Origin: Bacteroidota bacterium
GTDB taxonomy: Bacteria > Bacteroidota > Bacteroidia > Chitinophagales > Chitinophagaceae
NCBI GenBank assembly: GCA_016868895.1
Contig: VGFK01000001.1
Coordinates: 23,006 to 87,005, forward strand
DNA length: 64,000 nt
Direction: 5' to 3'
Shown: one piece after another, positions 1,784 through 50,002 of the stretch
Layout of the letters: each line of letters starts with the position of its first letter
Numbering within the stretch: position 1 is the stretch's first letter
Notes under the pieces: generated by a model
Told to the model about the DNA's origin: nothing
What the model saw: the letters and a program-made list of their open reading frames with translations, nothing else
The model's database searches: none
Translations under genes and position numbers: made by a program

Positions 1784-1808
1784 GTTGTAAGTTGTAGGTT
1801 GTAGGTTA
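1784..1808. repeat. Heptamer tandem array (GTTGTAA, GTTGTAG x2, partial GTTA)
   Basis: Fills the gap between the SDR stop (1806-1808) and the DUF62 start (1779). Confidence 0.85.
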
Positions 1809-2621
1809 CTTTATGAGTTTTCCTTCTTTAAAAAAGAACTTTCGTACGAGCTTGTCGGCGAGGGAGGGGAAAAAACGGTTCAAAAAAACAGTTTGTTTAC
1901 CCTGAAACGTCATCACCACGGTGCGTTTGCGTTTTTCGATCCCATCCAAAATGATGTTCGCGCACTGGTCGGCCGACATCAAACTGGCTTCATCCAACGG
2001 TGATTCTCCCTGCGCCCTTCCCTCATGATTCAACGCCACATTGCGGATGTTGGAGGCTGTGAAACCGGGACTCACCCACATCACGTGCACGCCTTTATCA
2101 ACCAACTCTGTCTTGATCGACTCCAGCCATCCCTGCAACGCAAACTTCGAAGCGGAATACCCGCTCCTACCAGGCAATCCCCGGTATCCGGCAATGGATG
2201 AAATGCCAACAATCACTCCCTTCGATTGAATCAAATGCGGCAAGGCATAGGTCGTGCAATACATCGCTCCATTGAAATTCACATCCATCACGCGCTTGAT
2301 CACGCCTATGATAGAAGTCCCTCCCTCTTCCATCAATCCTCGCATGGAGATGCCGGCATTGTTGATCAACACATCCACCGTTCCAAATTGAGCCACCGCT
2401 TGCGAAACAATCCGCTCACAATCCCGCTCACTGGTTACATCCGCCTGCACCACACACAATTTTCCAACAGGCGCCTCGGCTTCCAATGCATGAATCTTTG
2501 ATTGATCTCGACCACAGGTCACCACCCGCGCACCACGGGCAATGGCGGCTAAGACAAGCGCGCGACCGATGCCGTCGGTTCCTCCGGTTATCACGACTGT
2601 TTTGTTGTTCAAGGTTTGCAT
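1806..2621 (-). CDS. Short-chain dehydrogenase/reductase (SDR)
   Basis: TGGTDGIG, NNAG and catalytic YSASK motifs. Confidence 0.93.
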   Translation of the reverse strand: MQTLNNKTVVITGGTDGIGRALVLAAIARGARVVTCGRDQSKIHALEAEAPVGKLCVVQADVTSERDCERIVSQAVAQFGTVDVLINNAGISMRGLMEEGGTSIIGVIKRVMDVNFNGAMYCTTYALPHLIQSKGVIVGISSIAGYRGLPGRSGYSASKFALQGWLESIKTELVDKGVHVMWVSPGFTASNIRNVALNHEGRAQGESPLDEASLMSADQCANIILDGIEKRKRTVVMTFQGKQTVFLNRFFPSLADKLVRKFFFKEGKLIK

Positions 2622-2655
2622 GATCCGATATTGAATGGGCTCATAAAGTTAAATG

Positions 2656-2681
2656 AAAAATGGTCGCCATTGAGGCGACCA
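2656..2681 (-). terminator. Intrinsic terminator downstream of tRNA-Lys
   Basis: Minus strand ATGGTCGCC-TCAAT-GGCGACCAT followed by TTTT. Confidence 0.8.
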
Positions 2682-2685
2682 TCCG

Positions 2686-2758
2686 TGAACCCGCTGGGAC
2701 TCGAACCCAGGGCCCATACATTAAAAGTGTATTGCTCTACCAACTGAGCTACGAGTTC
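2686..2758 (-). tRNA. tRNA-Lys (anticodon UUU), CCA not encoded
   Basis: GAACTCGTAGCTCAGTTGGTAGAGCAATACACTTTTAATGTATGGGCCCTGGGTTCGAGTCCCAGCGGGTTCA: 73 nt with acceptor stem, D-arm and GGTTCGA T-arm. Confidence 0.96.
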
Positions 2759-2800
2759 AATCCACTCCATAGAACGCTTTTCAGCGCCTGAAAGGGAGTG

Positions 2801-2831
2801 CAAAAATAACGGGTTTTGATATCCGAACAAA
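2801..2831 (-). promoter_or_regulatory. Bacteroidota sigma70 promoter for tRNA-Lys
   Basis: Minus strand TTTG (2831-2828), 19-nt spacer, TATTTTTG (2808-2801). Confidence 0.7.
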
Positions 2832-2853
2832 ATGAAAATGCATCCCTTTTTGT

Positions 2854-2861
2854 TACTTTTG
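2854..2861 (+). promoter_or_regulatory. -7 element (TACTTTTG) upstream of the DUF2723 gene
   Basis: Matches TAnnTTTG, ending 18 nt before ATG 2880; no clear -33 element. Confidence 0.5.
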
Positions 2862-2879
2862 TCAACTAAACAAGAACTT

Positions 2880-5800
2880 ATGTCGTTCAACAAGATCAAC
2901 AACATCGTTGGCTGGTTCGTGGCCCTGATCGCCTGCTCGGTTTACATCGTTACAGCAGAAGCAGGAGGCAGTTTGTGGGATTGCGGCGAGTTCATCAGTT
3001 CCTGTTTCAAATTACAAATACCTCACCCCCCGGGAGCACCGCTATTTGTCATCCTGGGCAGGGTGTTCATCGTTCTTTTCGGCAACGACCCTGCTACTGC
3101 TGCCAAAGCGGTCAACGTGATGAGCGCACTGGCCAGCGGATTCACGATTCTGTTTTTGTTCTGGACCATCACGCACTTTGCACGAAAAATTGTTCAACGC
3201 ACCGGCGAATCGCTGAACCAACAACAACTGTTCACCATCATGTCCGCCGGCGTTGTCGGTGCACTGGCCTATACGTTCAGTGACTCGTTCTGGTACAGCG
3301 CAGTGGAAGGTGAAGTGTACGCCCTCTCCTCTTTCTTCACCGCACTGGTGTTCTGGATGATGCTCAAATGGGAACACGCGGCTGATGAACCGGGCGCTGA
3401 TCGCTGGATCATTTTGATCTTCTTCATGATGGGACTCTCCATCGGCGTACACTTGTTGAACCTGTTGACCATCCCCGCGATTGTCATGATTTATTATTAC
3501 AAGCGGTATAAGGTCACCGGCTGGGGCACCTTTTGGGCCTTCCTCATTGGATGCATCATCACCGGCGTGGTTCAGAAAGGAGTGATTCAATACACCATCA
3601 AAGCAGCGGGACAATTTGATATTCTGTTTGTCAATTCATTTGGACTTCCTTTCTTCTCCGGATTCATTACCTTTTTTGTACTGCTGGCAGCGCTGGTCTT
3701 CCTGGGCATTCGGTATGCGAATTCCGGCAAAAGCAAGGTGGATGCGCATTTCCTGAAATTGGGACTCTGGTCGTTTACCTTCATGCTGTTGGGATACTCT
3801 ACGTACATCACCACCATGGTGCGCTCTGCAGCCAATCCGGCTATCGATATGTACAATGTCGATAATCCGATGTCGCTGGAAGGCTATCTCGGTCGCGAAC
3901 AATACGGCGATTTTCCACTGCTGTACGGACAAGTATTTACGGCTCGCCCGATCGATTACGAAGAAGGTTCGATGCGGTACGCAAAAGGAAAAGACAACTA
4001 CATAGAAGTCGGTCGCGAACAAAAACCAGTCTACGAATCTTCGGATAAAATGTTCCTCCCGCGTGTATGGGATGCAAGCAACGATCAGGGTCACGCGACG
4101 TTCTATCAACGCTGGTTGAACCTGGAAGATGGTGAAGCCCCCACTATGGCCGACAACGTGAGCTGGGCCCTGACCTATCAGATCGGGTGGATGTACTTTC
4201 GCTACTTTGGATGGAATTTCATCGGAAAGCAAAACGACCTTCAGGGCTTTGGCAACAAACGCGATGGCAACAGCATCACTGGAATAAGCACAGTCGATAA
4301 CACACTGCTGAGCAATCAGGATAAACTTCCTTCCAGCATCCGCAACAACAAAGCCAACAATAAACTCTATGCATTGCCCTTCATTTTGGGCATCCTTGGA
4401 ATACTTTATCAATACAAACGCGACAGAAAAGGATCATTCGTCTCGTTTCTGTTGTTTTTCTTTACAGGACTCGCCATTGTATTCTACCTCAACCAGGCCG
4501 GCAACCAACCCCGCGAACGGGATTATGCGTATGTCGGATCCTTCTATGCATTTGCAATATGGATTGGATTGGGCGTCATGCAAATCAACCAATGGTTGTC
4601 GCGCTTCACCAGTGCTTCCGTGGCCAATGCCTCTGCAGCACTGGTCTGCCTGCTGGCCGTTCCGGTCTTGATGGCAGCTGAAGAATGGGACGATCACGAC
4701 CGCAGTAAAAAACAAATGGCCCGCGACCTCGCCAAGAATTATCTGGAGAGTTGTGCACCCAATGCTATTCTTTTTTCGTTTGGCGATAACGACACCTATC
4801 CGCTGTGGTACGCGCAAGAAGTAGAAGGCATTCGCCGCGATGTGCGCGTCATCAACTATTCATTATTGGGTATTGATTGGTACATCAACCAGATGCGGTA
4901 CAAGGTGAATGGAAGTGCGCCGATTGATGTGATCTGGGGACCCGAAAAGATAGAAGGCGGAAAGCGCGACTACATCCGCTTCTACGAGCGCGAAGGCATC
5001 ACCGATCAAAACCGATATGTAGATCTGTATAGCTTGATGAATGATTTTGTAGGAAGCGACGACCAGGCCGCACAATTGCAAATGCAGGACGGTACGTGGA
5101 TGAATTACCTGCCGGTGAAAAAAGTCAGCGTACCCGTTGATGCAGAGAAAGTCCGCAAGAATGGTACCGTGGAGGCAGGCGACAGCATCCTGTCGGACAT
5201 CCGATTTGACATTCCAAAAGAGCTGCTGCTCAAAAACGATATGGCGGTGCTCAACATCATCGCTGCAAATAAATGGGATCGTCCCATTTATTTCACCTCT
5301 CCCTTCAATGAACTTGGCTTTGGACAATACCTGCGCAGCGATGGGCAGTCGTACCGACTGGTTCCCATCGCGGGACAAAACATGGTCAATTCCCGCGCCG
5401 CGTATGAAAACATCAAAAACAAATTTGCATACGGAAGCGCCAACATCCCGGGCGTGTATTTCGACGAAGAAAATCGTCGCCATTTGATCGGCATCCGACA
5501 ATCCATTGCAGAAGCGGCCAATCAACTAGCTATCGAAGGCGATTCCACCAAAGCCCGAGAACTGTTGAACCTTGCCGACAAAAATCTCTTGGAATCCAAC
5601 TTCCCCTATAGCATGGTGAGCCGGCAAAATCAGCACAACACCGTCAGCGTGCAGTTCCTGGAAGCCTGCTACCGAGCGGGTGAAAAGAAATTGGCGGCCA
5701 AGGTCAGTGCAGCGGTGATGAAAGACATCAACGAACAACTCGCATACTATGCGTTTTTGGGAAGTATGTCGGTCGCAGAACTGCAACAAGCCGTTCAGGA

Positions 5801-5918
5801 TTTACTCGCGAACAAAGCCGATAATTTCAGCAACGATCAACGTCAGATGTTCTTGGAGATAAGACAGGCGGTGATCATACAGGAATACATCAGGAGTTTG
5901 CAGGCAGCAGCAAATTAA
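2880..5918 (+). CDS. DUF2723 / TMEM260-family multi-TM protein, putative GT-C protein O-mannosyltransferase
   Basis: WDCGEFI, HPPGAPLF, SAVEGEVYALS and GDNDTYPLWY motifs plus many TM helices. Start taken at MSFNKINN, just after the -7 element. Confidence 0.85.
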   Translation: MSFNKINNIVGWFVALIACSVYIVTAEAGGSLWDCGEFISSCFKLQIPHPPGAPLFVILGRVFIVLFGNDPATAAKAVNVMSALASGFTILFLFWTITHFARKIVQRTGESLNQQQLFTIMSAGVVGALAYTFSDSFWYSAVEGEVYALSSFFTALVFWMMLKWEHAADEPGADRWIILIFFMMGLSIGVHLLNLLTIPAIVMIYYYKRYKVTGWGTFWAFLIGCIITGVVQKGVIQYTIKAAGQFDILFVNSFGLPFFSGFITFFVLLAALVFLGIRYANSGKSKVDAHFLKLGLWSFTFMLLGYSTYITTMVRSAANPAIDMYNVDNPMSLEGYLGREQYGDFPLLYGQVFTARPIDYEEGSMRYAKGKDNYIEVGREQKPVYESSDKMFLPRVWDASNDQGHATFYQRWLNLEDGEAPTMADNVSWALTYQIGWMYFRYFGWNFIGKQNDLQGFGNKRDGNSITGISTVDNTLLSNQDKLPSSIRNNKANNKLYALPFILGILGILYQYKRDRKGSFVSFLLFFFTGLAIVFYLNQAGNQPRERDYAYVGSFYAFAIWIGLGVMQINQWLSRFTSASVANASAALVCLLAVPVLMAAEEWDDHDRSKKQMARDLAKNYLESCAPNAILFSFGDNDTYPLWYAQEVEGIRRDVRVINYSLLGIDWYINQMRYKVNGSAPIDVIWGPEKIEGGKRDYIRFYEREGITDQNRYVDLYSLMNDFVGSDDQAAQLQMQDGTWMNYLPVKKVSVPVDAEKVRKNGTVEAGDSILSDIRFDIPKELLLKNDMAVLNIIAANKWDRPIYFTSPFNELGFGQYLRSDGQSYRLVPIAGQNMVNSRAAYENIKNKFAYGSANIPGVYFDEENRRHLIGIRQSIAEAANQLAIEGDSTKARELLNLADKNLLESNFPYSMVSRQNQHNTVSVQFLEACYRAGEKKLAAKVSAAVMKDINEQLAYYAFLGSMSVAELQQAVQDLLANKADNFSNDQRQMFLEIRQAVIIQEYIRSLQAAAN

Positions 5919-5922
5919 TCAT

Positions 5923-5973
5923 GTTGTAAGTTGTAGGTTGTATGTTGTGGGCGTGCCCGTCGTGGCGGGTTAT
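5923..5973. repeat. Heptamer array (4 units GTTGTAN/GTTGTGG) with GC-rich insert GCGTGCCCGTCGTGGCGG
   Basis: Read directly; lies between the convergent DUF2723 and AAA genes and ends on the AAA stop codon. Confidence 0.85.
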
Positions 5974-7442
5974 TGGTCGGAGAACATGGATCCCATGAGG
6001 TCGCGAAACTCGACTTTCTCGGAGAAGAGTTTTTTGCTGATCAGAGAGTAAGCACTAAGACCATAGAGCACAAACTCCATCAATAAGACTTTTTGCTTGC
6101 CGCTGGCTTTGGGATAATATTTCAAGACGATATCGGACAAACCATCGATGACATTCAGCAGTTTTTGTCGCTCGCTATCCTTCAACTGAAACAACACATT
6201 CGCCTGATTACCTGAATCGAACCAGCTGATGATGCGTTTATAGGGACTCTCTTCCTGCACCTCTTTATTCTTTTTCTTTTTGAAATCTTCTGGATCAGGG
6301 AAATATTGAACGAATACCGAACGGATGGATCGTTCCAGCAGGTTGACACTGACCTGATAGGGCCCTTCCTGCTCGCCCTCGTATACCAGTTCAATCTTAC
6401 CGGTAATGGCGGGAATGATGCCCTGCAAGTCGCTCATCCAAATCATTGAACTTTTTTCCTTGTTCAGAATGACCCGACGTTCGGCAGCACTGTAGGCATT
6501 TTCAAGCGCAGCAATGGTGAGTCGAGCTGATACTCCACTCTTTTGATCCACAAACTCACTGGAGCGCGCTTCGAATGCGATCTGTTCGATGATGCGGGTC
6601 ACAAGGTCGCTATGTTCAATGGTGCGCGATTGTGCGTCGTGCACACGCGCTTCCTGGGCGGTGATGCTGAGTGCGGCCTCCATTGATTTCGGGTAGTGCG
6701 TAAGGATTTGGCTTTCGATGCGGTCTTTCAACGGCGTTACAATCGATCCGCGATTGGTATAGTCCTCCGGATTGGCCGTAAACACAAACGCAATATCCAA
6801 CGGCATCCTCAATTTGAATCCTCTTATTTGTATATCGCCTTCCTGTAGAATATTGAAAAGGGAAACCTGAATGCGTGCCTGAAGATCCGGCAATTCATTG
6901 ATCACAAAAATGCAGCGGTTGCTGCGAGGAATAATTCCATAATGTATCACGCGTTCATCAGAGAAACTGAGTCGCAGGTTCGCCGCCTTCACCGGATCGA
7001 TGTCGCCGATGAGGTCCGCGACCGATACATCAGGTGTAGCGAGTTTCTCTCCATAGCGTTCGCTGCGGTGCAGCCAGGCAATGGGCGTTTCATCTCCTTT
7101 TTCTTCAATCAAATTGCGTGCAAAGGATGAGATGGGATGAAAGGGATCATCGTGGATTTCGCTTCCCTCTACGTAGGGAATGTATTCATCCAGTAAATCG
7201 ACCATCAATCGCGCCATCCGCGTCTTGGCTTGTCCCCTCAGCCCCAACAACAATATATTGTGACGCGAAAGAATCGCCCGCTCGGTATCGGGTATGACTG
7301 AATCTTCATATCCGATGATGCCCGGAAATCGTTCTTCGCCCGACTGCATTTTTCTGATCAGGTTTTCCCGTAACTCTTCTTTGATCGACCGCGACACATA
7401 CGCCGATGCGCGCAACTCCCCTAACGTCTGTATATCAACCAT
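5970..7442 (-). CDS. AAA+ ATPase, Mg-chelatase/MoxR-like
   Basis: LLGLRGQAKT Walker A, FVINELPDL Walker B-like, FTANPEDYTNRG, PLKDR. Confidence 0.85.
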   Translation of the reverse strand: MVDIQTLGELRASAYVSRSIKEELRENLIRKMQSGEERFPGIIGYEDSVIPDTERAILSRHNILLLGLRGQAKTRMARLMVDLLDEYIPYVEGSEIHDDPFHPISSFARNLIEEKGDETPIAWLHRSERYGEKLATPDVSVADLIGDIDPVKAANLRLSFSDERVIHYGIIPRSNRCIFVINELPDLQARIQVSLFNILQEGDIQIRGFKLRMPLDIAFVFTANPEDYTNRGSIVTPLKDRIESQILTHYPKSMEAALSITAQEARVHDAQSRTIEHSDLVTRIIEQIAFEARSSEFVDQKSGVSARLTIAALENAYSAAERRVILNKEKSSMIWMSDLQGIIPAITGKIELVYEGEQEGPYQVSVNLLERSIRSVFVQYFPDPEDFKKKKNKEVQEESPYKRIISWFDSGNQANVLFQLKDSERQKLLNVIDGLSDIVLKYYPKASGKQKVLLMEFVLYGLSAYSLISKKLFSEKVEFRDLMGSMFSDQ

Positions 7443-7515
7443 AACCTACAACTTACAACCTACAACTTACAACATACAACATACAACCTACAACCTACAA
7501 CCTATAACCTATAAC
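7439..7515. repeat. Longest heptamer array: 10 units NTAYAAC plus one degenerate unit
   Basis: CCATAAC CTACAAC TTACAAC CTACAAC TTACAAC ATACAAC ATACAAC CTACAAC CTACAAC CTATAAC CTATAAC; overlaps both the VWA stop and the AAA start. Confidence 0.95.
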
Positions 7516-8693: not shown

Positions 8694-9710
8694 TTACAGC
8701 AGGTTGACTTCTGCTTCCAGCTGCAGTCCAAAGCGGTGTTGAACCGATTGCTGAATCCGTTGCGCAAGTTCCAACAGTTTAGCTCCCGTTGCGCCGCCGT
8801 AATTCACCAGGACCAGTGCCTGTTTATCGTAGCAACCGCATGGGCCTTCCCGAAATCCTTTCCAGCCGCATTGCTCGATCAACCAACCGGCGGCGAGCTT
8901 GACTCCACCTGCTGATGGATAGGAGGGAATATCGGGATGAGCCGATTTCAATCGTTCGAATGTTGCCTGATCGACTGTTGGGTTTTTAAAAAAACTTCCG
9001 GCATTGCCCAATACCTTGGGATCCGGCAACTTGGAAGAACGGATGTCCATGACCGCCTGCGCAACATCCCGTATGGTGGGCTCCTGTATTTCTTTTTTCT
9101 TCAGCACCTCACGGATAGCACCGTAATCCAGGTGCAATGCATGAGAAGATGCAGAAAGATTCAACACCACTTCGGTAATGATGTAGCGGTCCTTTGCCGT
9201 TGTTTTGAAAATGCTGCTGCGGTAACCAAATGTACAATCATCGCTGAACAACGTGACAAACGCATGTGTCATTCGATCCCACGCTTTCAGAGAATGAAAA
9301 ACATCTTTTTTTTCAACCCCATAGGCGCCGATGTTTTGGACGGGAGCTGCTCCAATGGTTCCGGGAATCAGTGCTAAATTTTCTATTCCACCCCAGTTGT
9401 GTTTGATGCAGTGCATCACACAGTCGTGCCAGTTTTCACCTGCACCAAACGCAACACGAACAACATCCAGTGAAGTTTCCACAACCCGAATCCCTTTGAT
9501 GGAATTGAGAATGACCAGTCGCTCGACATCTTGTGTAAACAGGATATTGCTGCCCGAACCCAGGACCAAGGGGACTCCCGATTGAAACACGTCCGTTTGT
9601 GCAAGTGCTTGCAACTCTTCTTCGGTGGTGATCGCAGCAAACCATTTTGCCTTGACTTCCACCCCGAACGTATTGAACTGCTGTAACGATATATCCCGTT
9701 CAATCAACAT
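8694..9710 (-). CDS. murB: UDP-N-acetylenolpyruvoylglucosamine reductase
   Basis: NTFGV, LGSGSNILF, GAAPVQNIGAYGVE, GNAGSFFKNP, HALVLVN-like KQALVLVNYG; ATG at 9710. Confidence 0.96.
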   Translation of the reverse strand: MLIERDISLQQFNTFGVEVKAKWFAAITTEEELQALAQTDVFQSGVPLVLGSGSNILFTQDVERLVILNSIKGIRVVETSLDVVRVAFGAGENWHDCVMHCIKHNWGGIENLALIPGTIGAAPVQNIGAYGVEKKDVFHSLKAWDRMTHAFVTLFSDDCTFGYRSSIFKTTAKDRYIITEVVLNLSASSHALHLDYGAIREVLKKKEIQEPTIRDVAQAVMDIRSSKLPDPKVLGNAGSFFKNPTVDQATFERLKSAHPDIPSYPSAGGVKLAAGWLIEQCGWKGFREGPCGCYDKQALVLVNYGGATGAKLLELAQRIQQSVQHRFGLQLEAEVNLL

Positions 9711-9743
9711 ACAACCCACAACTTACAACTTACAACATACAAC
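9709..9743. repeat. Heptamer array, 5 units (ATACAAC CCACAAC TTACAAC TTACAAC ATACAAC)
   Basis: Fills the gap between the YfiT stop and the murB start; the murB ATG overlaps the last unit. Confidence 0.9.
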
Positions 9744-9747
9744 TCTC

Positions 9748-10275
9748 TCACCACTGCATCTCCTCCCTCAAATTCGTGACATGTGCAGCATGGTGCTTGC
9801 CGTGCCAGGAATAGATGATTAAGAGCGTCCACAGCGTCATGGTTGTTTTTTGTTCCGGATGAAAGATGGTGCGCTGCCACTGTTCATCGGTGATGGTCTT
9901 AAGCAGTTCGTACCAGCGGTGGTGCAGTGCGTGCAACAGGGTTATGGAATAATTGACCGGAACATTTTTCACATCTGCCGTTTCGCCCCACGCATTTTGG
10001 ATATAGGGTTTGATGGTGGGCTTGTCCTCGGTCAGTCCCAGTTTAAACCGAATGAACGCGTTCATGTGGGAATCGGCCACATGGTGAATCACTTGTGTGA
10101 GCGTCCAACCCCCTTCGCGATAAGGGGTATTCAGTTGATCTTCGTTCAGGTTCAATACAGCATATTCCAGCATGCGTGGAAGAAACAGAATGTCGGCCAG
10201 TCGCGCCTCTTTTTCTTGTTCAGAAAATTCTACTTGCTGCCATTTACCGATGGGGTAACGAGGGTCTGTTGTCAT
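9748..10275 (-). CDS. YfiT/BstA-family bacillithiol transferase (DinB superfamily)
   Basis: DPRYPIG, YREGGWT..QVIHHVADSHMNA, WHGKHHAAH metal-binding histidines. Confidence 0.88.
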   Translation of the reverse strand: MTTDPRYPIGKWQQVEFSEQEKEARLADILFLPRMLEYAVLNLNEDQLNTPYREGGWTLTQVIHHVADSHMNAFIRFKLGLTEDKPTIKPYIQNAWGETADVKNVPVNYSITLLHALHHRWYELLKTITDEQWQRTIFHPEQKTTMTLWTLLIIYSWHGKHHAAHVTNLREEMQW

Positions 10276-39028: not shown

Positions 39029-39074
39029 CTACAACCCGCCTAGGCGGGCACACCTACAACCTACAACGTACAAC
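39029..39074. repeat. Heptamer array (4 units) with perfect 14-bp palindrome CCCGCCTAGGCGGG
   Basis: TAAC CTACAAC CCGCCTAGGCGGGCACAC CTACAAC CTACAAC GTACAAC, between convergent ROK and proS. Confidence 0.9.
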
Positions 39075-39075
39075 C

Positions 39076-40554
39076 CTAATACGCTACAGCAAACAACACC
39101 CGCTGCTTACTCGGCTTACCCGAATACACGCATGCGCCTTCTTCTGTTGAGTTGTTGAGCGGGATGCAGCGGATGGTGGCCTTGGTCTCGTCTTTGATTT
39201 TCTCTTCGGTCTCACCGGTTCCATCCCAATGCGCAGAAATGAATCCGCCTTTTTGTTCCAGGACTTCTTTGAACTCCGACCAGCTGTTCACGGAGGTGAT
39301 GTGGGAGTCGCGGTACTGCAAGGCGCGTTGATACAAGTTGTGTTGAATTTCGTCCAGGAGCTGGACGATATAGTGGTCCAGGCCCGCCGCGGGCACGGAC
39401 GATTTTTCTTTGGTGTCGCGGCGGGCCACTTCTACCACGCCGTTTTCAATGTCTTTAGGACCAATCGCGATGCGCACAGGCACTCCTTTGAGTTCGTATT
39501 CCGCAAATTTCCAACCCGGCCGCGAATTGTCGTTGTCGTCGTACTTGACAGAAATTCCTTTTTGTTTGAGCTGCGCCATGATGGCATGGACGTTTTGGTC
39601 GACCAGCATCTTTTGTTCCGGTCCCTTGTAAATCGGCACAATCACCACTTGCAAGGGAGCAATGCGAGGAGGCAACACCAACCCTTCATCATCGCTGTGC
39701 GCCATCACCAGTGCACCAATCAAGCGCGTTGACACTCCCCAGGAAGTGGCCCACACGAATTCCTGCTTGTTTTCTTTGGTGAGGTATTTTACGTCAAATG
39801 CTTTTGCAAAATTTTGTCCCAGGAAATGTGAAGTCCCCGCCTGCAGCGCTTTCCCATCCTGCATCAAGGCTTCGATGCAATAGGTCTCCAATGCACCCGC
39901 AAAGCGCTCGTTGGGCGACTTAACCCCTTTCATGACGGGCAACGCCATGTAGTTTTCAACGAAATCGGCATATACATGCAACATTTTTTCTGCTTCCTCA
40001 ATGGCCTCTTGGGCAGTCGCATGTGCAGTGTGTCCTTCCTGCCACAAAAACTCTGCTGTACGTAAAAAGAGTCGGGTCCTCATTTCCCAGCGAACCACAT
40101 TGGCCCATTGGTTGATGAGCAGCGGGAGGTCGCGGTACGACTGTATCCAGTCCTTGTATGCATTCCAAATGATGGCTTCGCTGGTGGGCCGCACGATGAG
40201 CTCTTCTTCCAACTGGGCCTCAGGATCCACCATCAACTTTCCTTTCTGATTGGGGTCCCCTTTCAACCGGTAGTGGGTGACCACTGCACATTCTTTGGCA
40301 AAGCCTTCAGCGTGACCTTCTTCTTTTTCCAGAAACGACTTAGGAACGAAGAGTGGAAAATAGGCATTGGTGTGACCGGTGTCTTTGAACATCTTATCCA
40401 AGACATCGCGCATGTTTTCCCACAGGGTGTATCCATACGGCTTGATCACCATGCATCCGCGTACTGCGGAATAGTCGGCCAGTCCCCCCTTTAGTACCAA
40501 ATCATTGTACCACTGGGAATAATCGCTTGCCCGTTTGGTCACCTCATTGCCCAT
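39076..40554 (-). CDS. proS: Prolyl-tRNA synthetase (eukaryote/archaea-like type)
   Basis: [45 protein letters not shown]-terminal FAVAY. Confidence 0.98.
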
Positions 40555-43597: not shown

Positions 43598-43620
43598 TTT
43601 TTACTGCTCATACAACAACT

Positions 43621-44472: not shown

Positions 44473-44477
44473 TCGCA

Positions 44478-45326
44478 CTGAATAAAAAATGCATCATCAT
44501 AGCCGGTCCAACAGCCTCGGGAAAAACCGCAGCTGCCATCGAGCTGGCCCTTGGGTTGTCGACTGAAATCGTTTCAGCAGATTCACGGCAATGCTACCGT
44601 GAATTGCGCATCGGTGTTGCGCGTCCGACCGAAAGCGAGCTCGCACGCGTACCCCATCACTTCATCGCCAATCATTCCATCCACGAAACCATCACCGCTG
44701 CAGGTTTTGCCCGGGAAGCCGCAGGCTACATCAACACCATTCTTTCCGTTGCAGATCACGTGGTGGTCTGCGGAGGAACGGGACTCTACATCAAAGCCCT
44801 GGTTGAAGGATTGGACCAGATTCCGGAGACGCCATCAACGGTGCGGGACTCGGTCATCCAACTGTATCATGAAAAAGGGATCGAAGGCTTGAAAAATGAA
44901 TTGCTTTTTCGCGACCCTGCATCTGCGGAACAAATCGATCTTCAAAATCCCCAGCGCATGATGCGGGCATTGGAAGTCATCCTGCACACTGGAATTTCTA
45001 TTGCTTCGTTTCAGCAACAAAAATCCTCTCGCCTTTCGTTCAACGGAGAACCCATTGAAATAGAATACCGCATGCTTCAGCTCGACCGCGAAGTATTGTA
45101 TCACCGCATCAACGAGCGCGTGGACAAGATGATGGAAGCAGGACTGGAAGAAGAGGTTCGGAATCTGCATCCGCATCGCGCATTGGGTCCGCTGCAAACC
45201 GTCGGTTACCAGGAATTATTCGACTACATCGAAGGGAAGTGTTCGCGGGATGAGGCGGTAGAAAAAATCAAGCAACACACCCGGAATTATGCCAAGCGGC
45301 AAATCACCTGGTTCAAGAAGGTGTAA
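44478..45326 (+). CDS. miaA: tRNA dimethylallyltransferase, apparent CTG start
   Basis: The in-frame P-loop IAGPTASGKT lies upstream of the ORF-track start; ADSRQCY, CGGTGLY, YAKRQITWF. Confidence 0.93.
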   Translation: MNKKCIIIAGPTASGKTAAAIELALGLSTEIVSADSRQCYRELRIGVARPTESELARVPHHFIANHSIHETITAAGFAREAAGYINTILSVADHVVVCGGTGLYIKALVEGLDQIPETPSTVRDSVIQLYHEKGIEGLKNELLFRDPASAEQIDLQNPQRMMRALEVILHTGISIASFQQQKSSRLSFNGEPIEIEYRMLQLDREVLYHRINERVDKMMEAGLEEEVRNLHPHRALGPLQTVGYQELFDYIEGKCSRDEAVEKIKQHTRNYAKRQITWFKKV

Positions 45327-46749
45327 CCGGGGATAGTCCCAATTTCGCTGCTTCTTCAATCATGAGTGCATGAGCCGAATCATACGAGTTGTCAATCACA
45401 CCATCCAGAATCGCTTCTCGGATAGCAGTCTTTATCAATCCGACTTCTCTGCATGGCAATAAATTGAACGTACGCATGATGATCTCGCCGGTGATGGGCG
45501 GTTGCCAGTTTCGGATTTTATCTTTTTCTTCAACCGCTTTGAGTCGCTCCCGCACCATTTCAAAATTGGCACGGTAACGCCTTAATTTCGATTCATTTTT
45601 TGAAGTGATATCGGCTTCGCAGAGCGTCATCAGGTCCTCCAAATCTTCTCCGGCATCGAAGAGGAGTCGGCGGATTGCAGAGTCCGTGATATTTTCTTTG
45701 GTTAGGCTGATCGGACGCAGGTGCAATTCCACCAGCTTGCGGACATACCGCATGGGTTCGTTCAGCGGGAGCTTCCATTTGGTGAAGATCTTGGGGACCA
45801 TGCGACCGCCAATGACTTCATGTCCGTGAAACGTCCATCCTGTTCCCTTCTCAAATTTTTTTGTCGCCGGTTTTGCTATATCGTGCAACAACGCCGCCCA
45901 ACGCAACCAGAGGTTATTGGTGAACGGTGCAATGTTATCGACCACCTGAAGGGTATGGTAAAAATTATCCTTGTGCCCTTTTCCGTCCACATATTCAGCT
46001 CCTGCCAGTTCAATCAGCTGAGGAAAAATTTCCTTGAGCAGTCCCGTTTTATACAACAGATCCAATCCAATGGAAGGTTTGTCCGACAGCAGTATTTTAT
46101 TGAACTCATCGCTGATGCGTTCCTGGCTGATGATGGCGATGCGGTGCGCGGTATCGGTGATGCCCAACAGGGTTGCAGAGTGAATGGTAAAATTCAACTG
46201 CGATGCAAACCGAATGGCCCGCAGCATGCGCAAGGGATCATCGCTGAATGTGGCGTTTGGCGACAGCGGCGTACGGATGATGCGCTGTTCCAAATCCTTC
46301 AATCCATTGAAGGGATCTATCACCGAAGGGTGTTCATCGCGTGAACTTTTGGCATGCAATTCAAATGCAAGCGCATTGATGGTGAAATCACGACGCTCCT
46401 GATCATCTTGCAAGGAACCCGCTTCCACAACAGGATTACGGGAATCCCGCTGATAGCTCTCTTTGCGGGCACCCACAAATTCTACATCAAAGCCATCCGC
46501 AAAAAAATGAGCCGTGCCAAAATTTTTGAACCAGGAAACTTTTGGGGAAGGATGAAACCGAGCGGCACAGGCATTGGCCAATTCAATGGCATCACCCAAA
46601 CAGACAATATCAATATCATTGCACGAGCGACCCAGCAACTTATCGCGCACAAATCCACCTACCACAAACGAACGCAGGTTCGATTGCGTCGATGCATCAG
46701 CAATTTTGCCGATGAGCGACAATTCCTGTGGATTCAACTGGAGTTGCAT
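45313..46749 (-). CDS. cca: CCA-adding tRNA nucleotidyltransferase with HD domain
   Basis: VGGFVRD, DIDIV, RRDFTINA, DDPLRMLRA, LLHDIAKP. Confidence 0.92.
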   Translation of the reverse strand: MQLQLNPQELSLIGKIADASTQSNLRSFVVGGFVRDKLLGRSCNDIDIVCLGDAIELANACAARFHPSPKVSWFKNFGTAHFFADGFDVEFVGARKESYQRDSRNPVVEAGSLQDDQERRDFTINALAFELHAKSSRDEHPSVIDPFNGLKDLEQRIIRTPLSPNATFSDDPLRMLRAIRFASQLNFTIHSATLLGITDTAHRIAIISQERISDEFNKILLSDKPSIGLDLLYKTGLLKEIFPQLIELAGAEYVDGKGHKDNFYHTLQVVDNIAPFTNNLWLRWAALLHDIAKPATKKFEKGTGWTFHGHEVIGGRMVPKIFTKWKLPLNEPMRYVRKLVELHLRPISLTKENITDSAIRRLLFDAGEDLEDLMTLCEADITSKNESKLRRYRANFEMVRERLKAVEEKDKIRNWQPPITGEIIMRTFNLLPCREVGLIKTAIREAILDGVIDNSYDSAHALMIEEAAKLGLSPVTPS

Positions 46750-46751
46750 GG

Positions 46752-47564
46752 TTATACCGATACGTTAAAATCGCGCAAGGCATCGTTGAGACTGGTCTTC
46801 AAATCCGTACTGGGTTTGCGCTGACCAATGATCAGTGCACATCCTACCTGATACGTACCCGCGGGAAATGCTTTGGCATAGGATCCTGGAATCACCACGG
46901 ACCGAGCGGGCACACGTCCTTTGTATTCCACCGGTTCTGCACCGCTGACGTCAATGATTTTGGTTGATTTGGTGAGCACCACATTTGCACCCAACACGGC
47001 CTCCTTTTCTACGATGACTCCTTCGACCACAATGCAGCGACTGCCAATGAAGCATCCATCTTCGATGATCACCGGCGAAGCTTGCAAGGGTTCGAGTACA
47101 CCGCCGATACCGACGCCGCCACTGAGGTGCACTCCTTTGCCGATTTGTGCGCAGCTTCCTACGGTTGCCCAGGTATCGACCATTGTGCCCTCATCCACAT
47201 AGGCACCGATGTTTACATACGAAGGCATCAGCACCACATTTTTTGCCAGGTAAGCGCCGTAGCGGGCAACGGCATGGGGCACGGCGCGAACGCCGAGGGA
47301 TTTATAATCTTTTTTCAGCAGCATTTTATCATAGAACTCAAACGGAGCCAGTTCCCAGGTTTGCATTTGCTGAATACCAAAATACATGAGGATGGCTTGT
47401 TTCACCCACTCGTTTACGATCCACTCCTCTCCTTCTTTGTGTGCAATGCGCAAGCGACCCTTATCTACTTCTTCAATGACCTGTCGAACGGCATCCGCGT
47501 ATCCGTTTTCTTTTAAGCGTTCACGGTTCTCCCATGCTGCAGCGATTTGTTCCCTCAATTGCAT
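46752..47564 (-). CDS. dapD: Tetrahydrodipicolinate N-succinyltransferase
   Basis: WIVNEWVKQAIL, MPSYVNIGAYVDEGTMVDTWATVGSCAQIG, GGVLEPLQA. Confidence 0.96.
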   Translation of the reverse strand: MQLREQIAAAWENRERLKENGYADAVRQVIEEVDKGRLRIAHKEGEEWIVNEWVKQAILMYFGIQQMQTWELAPFEFYDKMLLKKDYKSLGVRAVPHAVARYGAYLAKNVVLMPSYVNIGAYVDEGTMVDTWATVGSCAQIGKGVHLSGGVGIGGVLEPLQASPVIIEDGCFIGSRCIVVEGVIVEKEAVLGANVVLTKSTKIIDVSGAEPVEYKGRVPARSVVIPGSYAKAFPAGTYQVGCALIIGQRKPSTDLKTSLNDALRDFNVSV

Positions 47565-47578
47565 ATCTTCAATTTGCG

Positions 47579-47586
47579 CAAATATA
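47579..47586 (-). promoter_or_regulatory. -7 element (TATATTTG) for dapD-cca
   Basis: Matches TAnnTTTG, 14 nt upstream of the ATG. Confidence 0.5.
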
Positions 47587-47591
47587 CAACC

Positions 47592-48641
47592 ATGGTCCCC
47601 ATTTCAACCTGCGTAGTCAGTTACGGTATTTCATCCAAGACCTTTCACTTGCCCTTTCTCACCACGCAGTCGGGCTATAGCCTAGACATGATTCTGGAGC
47701 GCAGCGGCAGCACTGCACTCGAAAAATTTCCCTCCATTAAGCTGGCACATGCGTTTGAAGATGTGTTGAGCGACGCATCGATTGAATTGGTGGTCATTAC
47801 CAGTCCCAACACCACCCACTTTACGTATGCTAAATCTGCGCTGCTGGCCGGAAAGCACGTGGTCGTGGAGAAGCCATTTACCACCACGCATGCTGAAGCA
47901 CTGGAGCTGGTAGCTCTTGCCGAGCAAACCGGAAAAATCTGTTCAGTGTTTCACAATCGCCGCTACGTAGCCGATTTTCTCACGATGAAGCAGGTCATTG
48001 AAACAGGATTACTCGGCGAGGTAAAAGAATTTTTTGCACACTATGATCGGTTTCGACCCGATCCTCGCACCTATGGTGTTTGGCGCGAACACGAATTGCC
48101 CGGAAGCGGAGTGTTTTTTGATTTGGGTCCCCACTTGATCGATCAGGCACTTGTGCTGTTTGGAATGCCTTCTGCCATTACTGCCGACATTCGGAGGATG
48201 AAAGACTACTCCAAAGTGGATGATTATTTTGACGTGCGTCTCCACTATGATTCGCTCATCGTGACCCTGCATTCCAGCATGTTGGTGCGGGAGATGGGAC
48301 CGCGGTACATGATCCATGGCACCAAAGGATCGTTCATCAAGCATGGGGAAGATCCGCAGGAAGAATTATTGAAAGCAGGACATCTTCCTGTCGGTCCCGA
48401 TTGGGGAAAAGAGGATCCTCAGTCGTATGGCTTGTTGCACACCGAGATCAACGGAGAGTTGGTCAGGCAGATCTATCCATCGGTGCAGGGTGGTTTTGGC
48501 AAGTACTACGAACATCTTCATGCCAGTATTCGCAACGGGGCACCCTTGCAGGAGACACCCGAACACGGTCGACGTGTCATTCAACTGATTGAATGTGCAT
48601 TCGAAAGCAGTCGACAGCGCCGCACTATAGATATTGGTTGA
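47592..48641 (+). CDS. Gfo/Idh/MocA oxidoreductase (YdgJ/IolW-like)
   Basis: [33 protein letters not shown]. Confidence 0.9.
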
Positions 48642-49953
48642 TGATGTTTTCCAGCCATTCTTGACGACCGCTAATTTGCCTGGGTTCTCCACTTTTGAAC
48701 GCGTAGTCGCGCAGGTCTTCCAGCGTCAGTTTTCCATCTTCAAATTGTTTTCCTGCTCCGCTGTCGAATGACGCATAGCGTTCTTTTCGGAACCAAGTAT
48801 ACGGTGATTCTTTTAGGATACGATCGGCCGTCACAAGCGCTCGTGCAAAAGCATCCATTCCTCCGATGTGGGCATAGAAGAGGTCTTCACCATCGGTAGA
48901 ATTGCGCCGTGTTTTGGCATCAAAGTTTACTCCGCCGCCTGCAAAACCTTTTGCTTCCAGGATGATGAGCATCGATTCCACCAGTTCGTTGAGGTGCGTG
49001 GGAAATTGATCGGTATCCCATCCGTTTTGTGCATCTCCGCGGTTGGCATCGATGCTGCCCAGCATGCCTGCATCGGCTGCGGTTTGCAATTCATGCTGGA
49101 AGGTATGTCCCGCCAGCGTTGCATGATTGACTTCGATGTTGAGTTTAAAATCCTTGTCAAGTCCGTGCTGCCTCAAAAACCCAATTACCGTCGCCGCATC
49201 ATAATCATACTGGTGCTTGGTGGGTTCGCAGGGCTTGGGTTCAATGAAGAAAGTTCCCTTGAATCCTTTTTTGTGCGCATAATCTTTTGCCATGTGCAGA
49301 AAGCGCGCCAGGTGATCCTGTTCGCGTTTCATGTTGGTGTTGAGCAGCGACATGTAGCCTTCTCTTCCGCCCCAGAACACATAATTCTCTCCACCCAATT
49401 GGATGGTGGCATCCAGTGCATTTTTCACTTGTGTCGCCGCATGGGCCACCACGTTGAAGTCGGGATTGGTACTGGCTCCGTTCATGTAGCGGGGATTGGA
49501 GAACACATTGGCCGTGCCCCACAATAGTTTCACACCGCTTGCTTTTTGTTTCATGCCGGCGTAGTCGACAATCGCCGCAAGGTTGCTTTCGTACGCAGCA
49601 AGGCTGTTGCCTTCGTCGACCAGATCCACGTCGTGAAAACAATAATACGGAACACCCAGTTTGGTAATGAATTCAAACGCGGCATCCATTTTATCCTTTG
49701 CGCGATCCAGGGCACTGGCGGAAGATTCCCATGGCAGGAATTTTGTTCCGGGACCAAACGGGTCGGCGCCGGTATTGCAGAAGCTGTGCCAATAGGCAAT
49801 GGCGAAACGAAAATGTTCTTTCATCGTCTTTCCCGCAACCAGCTGGTCTTCGTTGTACCATTTAAAAGCCAGTGGATTGTCGGATGCATTCCCTTCGAAT
49901 GGAATCTTACCAATGCCTGGGAAGAATTCTTTGTTGCCGAGTGTGAGGGACAT
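48625..49953 (-). CDS. xylA: Xylose isomerase (class II)
   Basis: [46 protein letters not shown]. Confidence 0.98.
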
Positions 49954-49962
49954 AATGTGAGT

Positions 49963-50002
49963 GTTGTAGGTTGTACGTTGTAGGTTGTACGTTGTATGTT
50001 AT
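49963..50002. repeat. Heptamer array, 5 units (GTTGTAG GTTGTAC GTTGTAG GTTGTAC GTTGTAT) plus GTTAT
   Basis: Between the xylB stop (49999-50001) and the xylA start. Confidence 0.9.

Follow-up and report, generated by a model that had tools for sequence, protein, structure and literature searches.

Heptamers are the commonest class of long simple-sequence repeat in bacteria according to Mrazek (2007), as cited in MacGregor (2015, PMC4679880). Repeats of the STRR/TAACTGA type form lineage-specific intergenic arrays of 2-10 heptamer units that differ by 7-nt indels between strains; they also occur in some Bacteroidetes, and their function is unknown (MacGregor 2015, PMC4679880). The GGGAATC heptamers of Xanthomonas and the GGGGAYT heptamers of Nostoc mostly form arrays of about four units with some free positions, and about 90% of these arrays are intergenic (Rehm et al. 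2015, PMC4692102). They are located close to where the upstream ORF ends; many are convergent inverted pairs able to form stem-loops, and sister species have them at the same gaps but with varying length and sequence (PMC4692102). Tandem heptamers are also found in the intervening sequences of 23S rRNA in Coxiella burnetii and Leptospira, where an S23p/PF05635 ORF sits in a stem (Warrier et al. 2016, PMC4990558). The terminal inverted repeats of this stem contain heptamers in strain-variable number, and RNase III cleaves the stem in Coxiella (PMC4990558).

Here we analyzed a stretch of 64,000 nucleotides (the window) from a 1.75-Mb Chitinophagaceae MAG (G000), a small freshwater-type Bacteroidota genome, in which a sequence-only reading had described six intergenic arrays of the 7-bp unit NTACAAC.

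Results

Tandem Repeats Finder identified period-7 arrays at 1783-1807, 5923-5948, 7443-7515, 9705-9744, 39052-39075 and 49963-50000 of the window. The two-unit pattern TAYAACNTAYAAC, with up to one mismatch allowed, had 26 matches, every one inside the six arrays; shuffled versions of the window gave an expectation of 0.46 and a maximum of 2. Independent assemblies (JGI, ENA and Logan) reproduce the arrays base for base, which rules out an assembly artefact. All six described arrays are thus confirmed as real and far above chance, and the genes that flank them are housekeeping genes.

Array 1 (1784-1808, minus strand) reads TAAC followed by CTACAAC CTACAAC TTACAAC, with the three units at 1784-1804 and then GTTA. 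The 26-nt gap that it fills separates the stop codon of an SDR gene (1806-1808) from the start codon of a SAM hydroxide adenosyltransferase gene (1777-1779), and the UACAAC strand is in the mRNA. Array 2 (5923-5950, minus strand) has the four units CCACAAC ATACAAC CTACAAC TTACAAC and is adjoined at 5951-5973 (also minus strand) by an 18-nt GC hairpin cassette, CCGCCACGACGGGCACGC (5951-5968), and ATAAC, which includes the TAA of an AAA-ATPase gene. This gap is convergent, between a TMEM260-like gene (plus strand, stop at 5916-5918) and the AAA-ATPase gene (minus strand, stop at 5970-5972). Array 3 (7439-7515, plus strand) consists of a degenerate CCATAAC and ten units (7446-7515). On one side is a VWA gene, whose TAG (7502-7504) is within the array, and on the other the ATG of the AAA-ATPase gene (7440-7442); here the GUUGUAN strand is in the mRNA.

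The five units of array 4 (9709-9743, plus strand) separate the yfiT stop (9748-9750) from the murB start. Array 5 occupies a convergent gap on the plus strand: one CTACAAC unit (39029-39035) directly 3' of the TAA-C of a ROK regulator gene, a GC hairpin cassette of 18 nt, CCGCCTAGGCGGGCACAC (39036-39053), and three further units, CTACAAC CTACAAC GTACAAC (39054-39074), that end 1 nt short of the proS stop (39076-39078). Array 6 (49963-50002, minus strand) reads ATAAC followed by ATACAAC GTACAAC CTACAAC GTACAAC CTACAAC, with its five units at 49963-49997, and separates the xylB stop (49999-50001) from the xylA start (49951-49953) in an apparent xylBA operon. It has a 14-nt superperiod, and superperiods of 14 and 21 nt occur in several arrays. 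The earlier description needs one correction: the arrays at 5923 and 39029 are non-uniform and each contain a GC-rich cassette.

The arrays had been described as anchored on start and stop codons. The underlying observations are correct: the TAA of the SDR, AAA-ATPase, ROK and xylB genes plus a C makes up the 5' edge (TAAC) of the array in its NTACAAC reading, and an ATG is built into the terminal unit of two arrays (murB, 9708-9710, inside GTTGTATG at array 4; AAA-ATPase inside GGTTATGG at array 3). TAA and TAG are contained in GTTGTAR units and ATG in GTTGTATG, and the NTACAAC strand has no stop codon. The apparent anchoring has a simpler cause in gap length: in relatives, the spaces that the arrays fill measure only 3-15 nt, so that the arrays become fused with the codons at their edges.

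Approximately 24 arrays are present in the genome, with a modal length of 3-5 units, and 22 of 23 are intergenic even though the genome is 93% coding. The proposed genome-wide spread was not borne out: nearly all arrays fall within about 120 kb (contigs C1, 0-73 kb, C5, 0-34 kb, and C10), roughly 7% of the assembly. Unit position 1 is nearly free (0.11 bits) and positions 2-7 carry 1.1-1.9 bits, as the placement of most variation at the first base would have it, with the core figures partly circular because the arrays were gathered by core match. The six-base core of the NTACAAC type is shared by about 24 loci and by at least five species, and a reversed-pattern control had no match in 82 genomes. 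The common unit and polarity, the cassette found twice in the same phase, and some 18 copies elsewhere identify one dispersed family and not six microsatellites. Convergent gaps hold 8 of 20 arrays, versus 18.5% of all gaps, and only one of the 20 is divergent; among clear cases in co-directional gaps, four single arrays are sense and three antisense. We found no link to a replication origin or terminus, with dnaA at C1:344 kb and no GC-skew switch within contigs. The genome has no reverse transcriptase and no RAYT/TnpA (PF01797) gene of the kind suspected to be linked to the arrays, no transposase or target-site duplication was seen for the arrays, and no new array insertion was seen among the near-identical strains compared.

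The GC cassette (consensus CCGCCNNGGCGGGCACRC) occurs seven times in the genome, each time within an NTACAAC array at the ends of convergent genes and in the same phase; two copies are decayed. It is present at 7 of 8 convergent array sites versus 0 of about 11 other array sites. No U-run follows it on the NTACAAC strand, only GUUGUAGGUU follows it on the other strand, and a consensus terminator scan did not flag it, leaving the cassette a weak candidate for a terminator.

Array length shifts between strains in 7-nt steps, which agrees with the proposed expansion by slippage: the ten units of array 3 are six in a strain 98.4% identical. One N position of array 3 was the sole difference from another assembly across 10.5 kb, and several Logan contigs terminate at the edge of this array. 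The sister species G006 (77-83% nucleotide identity) has an array in all 12 of the G000 gaps covered by the G006 contigs that were fetched. Unit numbers and N bases differ between the two, and cores are almost invariant in both. The cassette of array 5 has no counterpart in the orthologous G006 array. For the PF05635 gene adjoining arrays, the two species differ by a pS of 0.52 and a dS of 0.88. The confinement to about 120 kb is seen in both.

The form most typical of relatives is the inverted pair (GTTGTAN)n-spacer-(NTACAAC)n, which folds as a long hairpin with sharp outer ends and degenerate inner ends (..GTTAAC..). The polarity GTTGTA...TACAAC was found in 16 of 16 inverted pairs of relatives and in all three cassettes. 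RNA folding gave -37 kcal/mol for paired arrays (z -7.7 and -9.5) and no fold for single arrays. The streamlined G000 genome has mostly single arms, or one arm and the 18-nt hairpin. Where array 2 lies (C1 28.9k), the G044 ortholog is an inverted pair of 4+4 units; the C3 1.5k gap holds a pair in G049, and the C5 14.9k gap holds a pair in G006 and one arm plus GC cassette in G000. Closely related genomes have different units in the same gaps. More than 20 relatives have an array-free yfiT-murB gap of 3-15 nt, with no seed resembling the heptamer unit. Paired arrays are often located where other relatives carry ordinary terminators: in six relatives the convergent AAA/TMEM260 gap contains canonical bidirectional terminator hairpins, and most of the others have heptamer hairpins there.

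The gene linked to the repeat is not a RAYT but the genome's only PF05635/TIGR02436 gene (C5:9402-9892), a four-helix-bundle "rRNA intervening-sequence" gene. No other gene is enclosed by the repeat, and both arms around this one are the heptamer unit of the arrays. Of the 13 arrays on C5, 12 lie within 25 kb of it. Comparison with G006 gave a dN/dS of 0.08, indicating strong purifying selection. The PDB relative of its product is 2gsc, a homopentameric toroid according to Warrier et al. (PMC4990558).

Across the genus, 31 PF05635 genes were inspected, and nearly all of them lie between inverted arrays of 7-9-nt units. Three arm-unit predictions were set before dispersed repeats were searched. 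GGGACAN had 11-73 matches in five genomes with such arms and 0-1 in five others, GGGATGA had 12-29 in all four predicted genomes, and GGGAGAA had 21 and 17 in G049 and G056 and 0-1 in G044, G000 and G006. The arm units belong to each genome's own dispersed repeats, a concordance that could reflect shared ancestry or simply a gene lying within a hairpin of the prevailing family. In the clade of the G000-type protein, 8 of 10 genomes have GTTGT-core arms. The tie between arrays and gene is nevertheless loose. Random samples of PF05635-negative genomes still contained period-7 arrays (three in G003, three in G016 and 19 in 190 kb of G048), and PF05635-positive G077 had none in the 132 kb sampled. 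The commonest arrays of G023 and G071 are unlike their own arm unit. In G044 and G007, which have one or two PF05635 genes, the arrays are distributed over many contigs and are not clustered around the gene. Finally, the cassettes of G012 and G041 at one locus are 58% identical with unrelated arms.

Discussion

We propose, with a probability of about 0.6, that the six arrays are copies of a lineage-specific heptamer family (GTTGTAN/NTACAAC) of "heptamer-word hairpin" repeats that fill intergenic gaps across a Chitinophagaceae genus. Arrays would arrive as ready-made repeat DNA, either inserted or acquired through conversion by another copy, and would not grow from local seeds. Single arrays may derive from pairs through loss of one arm, a direction suggested by only three or four gaps. 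At convergent genes, the paired form and the GC cassette would act as 3' RNA hairpins (termination, RNase III cutting or mRNA stabilization), and single arms would have no role of their own in the expression of flanking genes. A sequence-specific process would preserve the six core bases and let position 1 drift; it could be conversion between copies from a constrained master, or a factor that reads a 6-nt core at 7-nt intervals. As the agent of this upkeep, the four-helix-bundle protein is no more than a candidate. Regional clustering falls outside this explanation and is not explained by it.

Independent neutral microsatellites, produced by polymerase slippage in place and alike through mutational bias only, would account for the slippage-type length changes and the 14- and 21-nt superperiods, and heptamers are both a favored slippage length and the commonest bacterial class of long repeat. 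This model is already hard to hold, and we consider it very improbable: one core with a free first position recurs at about 24 loci in at least five species and is intact after a dS of about 0.9, seven arrays carry an identical 18-nt cassette in one and the same phase, pair polarity is 16 to 0, the empty yfiT-murB gaps of relatives contain no seed, and the reversed pattern is absent from 82 genomes. Such constancy would suit a host operator, in which a DNA-binding protein reads contiguous 7-bp heptads and marks a nucleoid or partition domain. The conserved core with one free base, strict 7-bp spacing, tolerance of both orientations, maintenance at that divergence and confinement to about 120 kb in two species are all in its favor. 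However, units differ among close genomes at the same gaps, unlike the site of a conserved regulator, arrays avoid divergent, promoter-bearing gaps, and the arrays of relatives are hairpin pairs at terminator positions. With no candidate protein identified and no origin or terminus link from the position of dnaA or from GC skew inside contigs, we regard this explanation as improbable.

A role in RNA would be equally doubtful. Single arrays are structure-free as RNA and could serve as CA- or GU-rich leaders that tune downstream translation initiation in Bacteroidota, which lack Shine-Dalgarno pairing, or as sites for a TRAP/HutP-type protein; MacGregor proposed such a role for TAACTGA repeats (PMC4679880). 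However, occurrence in either orientation together with unstructured RNA argues against one RNA-level role for single arrays. In addition, 8 of 20 arrays are flanked by a stop codon on each side, downstream genes are unrelated in function, and relatives manage without an array at the same junction. An S23p/PF05635 replicator is unlikely too, but somewhat less so: a ring oligomer would bind the 6-nt core every 7 nt in DNA or RNA, keep cores constant, and seed or maintain gene-less copies preferentially near its own gene, by analogy with REPIN-RAYT. The gene alone is enclosed by the repeat and is under purifying selection (dN/dS 0.08 versus G006), its PDB relative 2gsc is described as a homopentameric toroid, the modal array length is 3-5 units, arm units matched dispersed units in all three pre-stated tests, GTTGT-core arms recur in 8 of 10 clade genomes, and 12 of 13 C5 arrays are within 25 kb. 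Against it stand the arrays of G048, G003 and G016 without the gene, the array-free 132 kb of G077, the dominant arrays of G023 and G071 unlike the arm unit, the dispersal over many contigs in G044 and G007 with one or two such genes, the unrelated arms of the 58% identical G012/G041 cassettes, and a protein without a known nuclease or recombinase fold.

Contiguous 7-bp units, direct or inverted, also make up the heptad operators bound by the omega repressor (plasmid pSM19035), with a rule on the permitted relative orientations. Omega sites are on a plasmid and upstream of promoters, whereas the arrays described here avoid promoter-bearing gaps and have no identified ribbon-helix-helix partner. 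REP/REPIN-RAYT systems share with the heptamer family extragenic hairpin doublets, vertical inheritance in fixed gaps, a preference for gene 3' ends, and one single-copy gene flanked by its own repeat. They differ in that the heptamer family has no RAYT (PF01797), its arms are tandem heptamers and not a single imperfect palindrome, and its associated gene lacks a known catalytic fold and is not associated one-to-one.

The layout of G000:C5:9402-9892, a PF05635 gene between heptamer inverted repeats, is that of an S23p intervening sequence. However, S23p insertions are in rRNA, the C5 cassette lies between protein-coding genes, and the six window arrays are gene-less. In Beggiatoaceae, TAACTGA repeats mostly share one orientation and immediately precede start codons, unlike NTACAAC arrays, which are mixed in orientation and favor 3' ends and convergent gaps. 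The units of Xanthomonas and Nostoc are G-rich and quadruplex-capable and GTTGTAN/NTACAAC is not, their families are chromosome-wide and this one is in about 7% of the assembly, and they are tied to no gene family in PMC4692102, in contrast to the PF05635 link here. The likeness to cyanobacterial STRRs drawn by the sequence-only reading is apt (PMC4679880, PMC4692102). As in Xanthomonas and Nostoc, the GTTGTAN/NTACAAC heptamers are tandem and intergenic, form inverted pairs and occupy gaps common to sister species, and the repeat is of a known kind, with STRR, Xanthomonas GGGAATC and TAACTGA.

Heptamer arrays in the window

Tandem Repeats Finder reported period-7 arrays at all six places where the sequence-only reading had put them (1784-1808, 5923-5973, 7439-7515, 9709-9743, 39029-39074 and 49963-50002). 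A two-unit pattern, TAYAACNTAYAAC, with at most 1 mismatch, matched 26 times against 0.46 expected from shuffles, and every match fell within these six places. The unit is NTACAAC (GTTGTAN on the opposite strand); position 1 can be almost any base, and a C-to-T change recurs at position 4. Read from the sequence, each array occupies nearly the entire space between two ORFs, and the codon details described earlier were also confirmed: at four TAA stops the next base is C, so that 'TAAC' forms the array's 5' edge, while the ATG of murB lies within GTTGTATG and that of an AAA-ATPase gene within GGTTATGG. The TAG stop of the VWA gene falls within the 10-unit array. The arrays at 5923 and 39029 proved to be heptamer arrays as described, but not uninterrupted ones, each containing an 18-nt GC-rich palindromic cassette (5951-5968 and 39036-39053). 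At gathering score, Rfam 15 matched only the tRNA-Lys in the window and no known RNA family at the arrays. A consensus promoter and terminator scan matched nothing at the arrays, and no promoter-like site spans them.

The window corresponds to C1:23006-87005 of a 1.75-Mb genome (G000; 11 contigs, C1-C11, 95.8% complete) whose proS is 76-89% identical to proS of Chitinophagaceae and 'Sphingobacteriales' MAGs and isolates. Its genes encode core functions (murB, purEK, bshC, ftsY, a SusC/D polysaccharide locus, proS, xylAB and one tRNA-Lys), its GC, GC3 and tetranucleotide composition is ordinary, and it is not a mobile island. The genome is streamlined, with median gaps of 3 nt between convergent and 18-19 nt between co-directional pairs, and there is no room for any terminator hairpin at most 3' ends. 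Downstream of the minus-strand tRNA-Lys(UUU) lies the best canonical terminator hairpin of the first 12 kb (11-bp stem with a T-run; window 2658-2758), so ordinary terminators are used by this organism where present.

Distribution across the genome

Three whole-genome scans of G000 (strict, TRF and loose) yielded about 24 arrays of at least three units. By a crude gene set 93% of the DNA is coding, yet 22 of 23 arrays fall between ORFs; arrays are not equally frequent in coding sequence, and the intergenic bias described from the window holds for the whole genome. The sole intragenic copy is a five-unit NTACAAC array in plsX (C5:1349-1383), in frame near the N-terminus and read ..YFNLQRTTNNVQL... 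A GC cassette and a four-unit array (C5:4002-4055) together encode the last ~17 residues of a DUF3810 protein (..HQPATADKHTTYNLQHTTF*); because the NTACAAC strand is stop-free, this ORF continues past the array to a TAA and overlaps the gene that converges on it.

The family does not extend genome-wide. Nearly all arrays lie within ~120 kb, and the remaining ~1.6 Mb of the genome is empty: eight are at C1 0.9-73 kb, 12 at C5 1.3-33.4 kb, and one each on C10, at C1 536 kb and at C3 1.5 kb, with one decayed copy at C5 54.4 kb. Contigs C2, C4, C6-C9 and C11, 42% of the genome, have none (chance ~4e-6 if 23 arrays were placed at random). The same confinement to ~120 kb was seen in the sister species, G006.

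We considered several explanations for this clustering. Foreign origin or chimeric assembly was rejected because the cluster has ordinary GC, GC3 and tetranucleotide distances, carries housekeeping core genes, and is as similar to G006 inside as outside. No tie to a replication origin or terminus emerged either: dnaA lies at C1:344 kb and GC skew changes sign inside no contig. Nor could C5, C10 and C1 be joined into one region: distant relatives are rearranged, and contig walking met an IS3 copy and an AT-rich strain-variable island. On C5, 12 of 13 arrays lie at most 25 kb from the single gene-bearing copy of the family, the PF05635 cassette, which would fit action near that gene. However, dispersed arrays in two other genomes of the genus, G044 and G007, are unclustered, so local hopping around the gene is not a general rule.

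C5 starts with an IS3-type orfA fragment (C5:3-269), with the AT-rich variable island beyond it in some strains, and a ribbon-helix-helix/PemK toxin-antitoxin pair lies at C5:2396-2957. A second, minor heptamer family (GTTGACN/GTTAACN) is inverted and flanks a gene for a Wzz-like chain-length determinant (C1:892-944 and 2026-2054). Its words are multi-copy in G048, G003, G016, G056 and G044, and three of these genomes lack PF05635.

Conservation in a sister species and among strains

The true pattern was found in 13 of 82 genomes of the genus and in none of 16 other sampled genera of the order; the reversed, uncomplemented pattern, used as a control, had no match in any of the 82. G006, whose YfiT is 93% identical to that of G000, has 37 three-unit matches on eight small contigs, six of which align to exactly the array-bearing parts of G000 at 75-83% nucleotide identity. 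Every G000 gap covered by the G006 contigs examined (12/12) has an array in G006 too; orientation and outer flanks agree between the species. The arrays were inherited from the common ancestor of the two species. At these shared gaps N bases differ, and so do unit numbers, in steps of 7 nt x n. Divergence in the adjacent PF05635 gene (pS 0.52, dS 0.88) places neutral sites near saturation, and still the six-base core hardly varies in either species. Slippage is insufficient alone, because it homogenises units within one array and leaves unexplained why 24 arrays in two species keep one consensus. We infer that sequence-specific constraint or homogenisation between copies must also act.

Slippage itself, proposed earlier as the route of expansion, was supported by comparison with other assemblies encoding an identical YfiT. 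The array at 7439-7515 has 10 units in G000 and 6 in a 98.4%-identical strain, and in a 99.99%-identical assembly the one base that differs in 10.5 kb is at an N position of this array. Shorter arrays are identical between strains; only the long array varies, so long arrays are the slippage hot spots. Several Logan contigs from other samples stop exactly at the edge of the same 10-unit array, which probably reflects length heterogeneity in those populations; such arrays therefore break short-read assemblies.

Inverted pairs, single arms and the GC cassette

In five relatives (G044, G049, G056, G024 and G096) the NTACAAC unit occurs mostly as two arrays per gap. The order 5'-(GTTGTAN)n-spacer-(NTACAAC)n-3' was seen in 16 of 16 pairs of relatives and the opposite order in none. 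The outer ends of pairs are sharp and the inner ends decay to ..GTT / AAC.., often around GGTTAACC, which explains the 'TAAC' before single arrays whether or not a stop codon is present. Pairs fold at ~-37 kcal/mol on either strand (z -7.7 and -9.5), whereas folding gave no RNA structure for the single arrays of the window. G000 itself has one gene-free inverted pair (C5 20994/21053) in addition to the gene-bearing pair at C5 9402/9872. The convergent inverted arrangement thus holds at the level of the family, and the six window arrays, which enclose no gene, are single arms. At three gaps a pair in a relative corresponds to one arm in G000, namely C1 28.9k (pair in G044), C3 1.5k (pair in G049) and C5 14.9k (pair in G006, one arm plus a GC cassette in G000). 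At the VWA-to-AAA gap the G044 arrays run in the opposite orientation. These comparisons suggest that single arrays are pairs minus one arm. Pairs and GC cassettes are also predicted to function as hairpins, with no role for single arms.

The GC cassette, AAC-CCGCCNNGGCGGGCACRC-CYACAAC, has seven copies in G000, two of them decayed, all in the cluster and always within an NTACAAC array in constant phase. It occurs at 7 of 8 convergent array sites and at none of ~11 co-directional or divergent sites. Orthologous G006 arrays are without it, so it spread among arrays after the split, and it is the one direct sign in G000 of sequence moving between arrays. Comparable short GC hairpins are embedded in the heptamer arrays of other members of the genus. 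Its stem is 5-6 bp, no clean U-run follows, and the consensus terminator scan passed it over; its location solely at convergent ends, together with canonical terminators in the same gap of relatives, is positional evidence for a terminator.

Occupied and empty gaps in relatives

The history of individual gaps bears on how the arrays arose. In over 20 relatives, the nearest outgroups (G013, G086 and G073) among them, the yfiT-murB gap is 3-15 nt, free of arrays and without a proto-unit. Arrays occur there only in G000 and G006 (GTTGTAN) and, with a different unit (GTTAACN), in G044. The array therefore probably came as ready-made repeat DNA into a tiny gap. This also reinterprets the anchoring on start and stop codons put forward in the sequence-only reading: codons do abut or sit inside arrays, but as a consequence of the array filling a tiny gap. 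No target-site duplication is visible between the filled and empty yfiT-murB sites. Of the MITE hallmarks, inverted arms are present; a matching transposase was not identified, the IS3 fragment with which C5 opens being unrelated.

The VWA-AAA and AAA/TMEM260 gaps carry arrays in most members of the genus, with genome-specific units (GTTATGN, GGGACGN, GGCACGA, GGGATGA, GGTTGAAG and 9-mers). At the convergent AAA-ATPase/TMEM260 gap (window 5919-5969), six relatives (loci L335-L337, L341, L342 and L344) have canonical bidirectional terminators such as AAAAAGGGGTGTACCA...TGGTACACCCCTTTTT, and most other members of the genus have heptamer or 9-mer hairpins in their place. Paired arrays therefore occupy terminator positions. 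Convergent gaps make up 18.5% of G000 gaps yet hold 8 of 20 arrays; divergent, promoter-bearing gaps hold one of 20, an arm of the PF05635 cassette.

The PF05635 gene and its flanking arms

G000 has exactly one PF05635 gene (C5:9502-9870), a TIGR02436 'four helix bundle protein' with a PDB relative, 2gsc (XCC0516). It lies outside the window in a cassette (C5:9402-9892) whose arms, (GTTGTAN)4 at 9402-9429 and (NTACAAC)3 at 9865-9892, are in the standard pair order and share their unit with the window arrays. The latter are not cassettes but gene-less, mostly single-armed copies of the family. The protein and its G006 orthologue share 86% identity at a dN/dS of 0.08, and the gene is therefore a working gene. 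Between more distant species it changes much faster than the genes beside it: the G000 and G044 orthologues are 44% identical, against 70-90% for flanking genes.

PF05635 genes occur in 52 of the 82 genus genomes, with 1-11 in each. Nearly all of the 31 inspected are flanked by inverted 7-9-nt arrays, the G/T-rich arm being on the 5' side of the gene, and the arm unit varies from cassette to cassette. Three predictions relating arm units to dispersed units were fixed before searching, and all three held. Genomes with GGGGACA arms have 11-73 dispersed GGGACAN matches, compared with 0-1 in others. The four genomes with GGGATGA arms have 12-29 matches, and a fifth GGGATGA-positive genome, G061, turned out to have a second cassette with GGGATGA arms. 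G049 and G056, which share an orthologous cassette with GGGAGAA arms, have 21 and 17 dispersed matches; G044 has GGGGACA arms at that locus and a single GGGAGAA match. Cassette arms and dispersed arrays therefore change together between species.

However, the gene is neither necessary nor sufficient for arrays. We counted period-7 arrays in random samples of 76-200 kb per genome. Among genomes lacking PF05635, G066, G022 and G002 had none, G073 had one, G003 and G016 had three each, and G048 had 19; among genomes with the gene, G077 had none and G023 had six, of a unit unlike its own arms. In G071, GGGACGA arrays coexist with GTTGAAG arms. Genomes each use a small set of repeat words, one of them in the cassette. 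The PF05635 gene may be the agent, a passenger in the hairpin, or an element targeting hairpin loops.

Two further readings were rejected. A linked RAYT/TnpA-like transposase, raised in the sequence-only reading, was not found: there is no PF01797 match in the 95.8%-complete G000, and controls matched in 6 of 14 genomes. A diversity-generating role of the four-helix-bundle gene (DGR/Avd) was dismissed because G000 has no reverse transcriptase (PF00078). A bolder proposal is that the arrays were left as a footprint by an undescribed system for propagating repeats, in which hairpin arrays and the enclosed S23p/PF05635 gene form a vertically inherited replicator and a ring-shaped protein reads the 6-nt core every 7 nt, seeding copies near its own gene. 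We regard this as unlikely, at a probability of roughly 0.15. If true, it would account for cores that stay constant over dS ~0.9 while arm units and dispersed copies change jointly between species, and seeding near its own gene would give the 120-kb cluster. Such a system would resemble REPIN-RAYT but without a known transposase.

Comparison with known repeat systems

Intergenic heptamer repeats of cyanobacteria, Xanthomonas, Beggiatoaceae and Bacteroidota have been seen for decades without an accepted origin or function. G000 is an unusually clean case, with essentially one repeat family and, enclosed by it, one four-helix-bundle gene of the kind seen in rRNA intervening sequences, and it also offers 12/12 shared sister gaps, strain-level length variation and empty sites in the nearest relatives. 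Any model is constrained by six core bases fixed and one drifting at near-saturated neutral divergence, by the same gaps being used genus-wide with genome-specific units that sometimes replace ordinary terminators, and by the limitation of the family to one chromosomal neighbourhood. A sequence-specific agent, if found, would explain widespread bacterial 'junk' repeats and might give the S23p/TIGR02436 family a function. If there is no agent, the arrays are still useful as fast strain markers. They also call for caution in gene calling, as start and stop codons, and even the C-terminal residues of a protein, can come from an array.

Phase-variable contingency loci have a repeat within an ORF or between the -35 and -10 elements, toggling a surface or restriction-modification gene. 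The arrays here run stop-to-start or stop-to-stop and are flanked by housekeeping genes (murB, proS, xylAB and the purEK neighbourhood), and we rejected this explanation. REP/REPIN-RAYT systems also differ, in that their repeat is imperfectly palindromic, 20-40 nt long, and has a conserved 5' tetranucleotide; here the repeats are tandem heptamers and only the GC cassette is palindromic.

The arrays most likely belong to the heptamer-repeat class that comprises the cyanobacterial STRR and the TAACTGA repeats of Beggiatoaceae and Bacteroidetes (PMC4679880), together with the Xanthomonas/Nostoc repeats. Like heptanucleotide long repeats and STRR-like sequences, they are tandem 7-nt units above chance, mainly intergenic, with copy number varying in unit steps. 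Xanthomonas repeats have a mode of ~4 units, are ~90% intergenic, lie beside the end of the upstream ORF, form 70 convergent inverted pairs, and occupy identical gaps in sister species with varying lengths (PMC4692102), a close match to the G000 family in length mode, intergenic position, inverted pairs and shared gaps. We regard the family as a variant within this class; regional confinement of this kind was not found in the literature searched. It also ties the repeats to S23p/TIGR02436 genes in a way that is clean and open to test; in that literature, no link between PF05635 proteins and dispersed heptamer arrays was found except in the description of the Coxiella 23S rRNA intervening sequence. 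That element combines an S23p gene, a 28-bp terminal stem and variable-number tandem heptamers, and RNase III cuts it at the first repeat (PMC4990558); the gene-bearing copy of G000 shares its layout.
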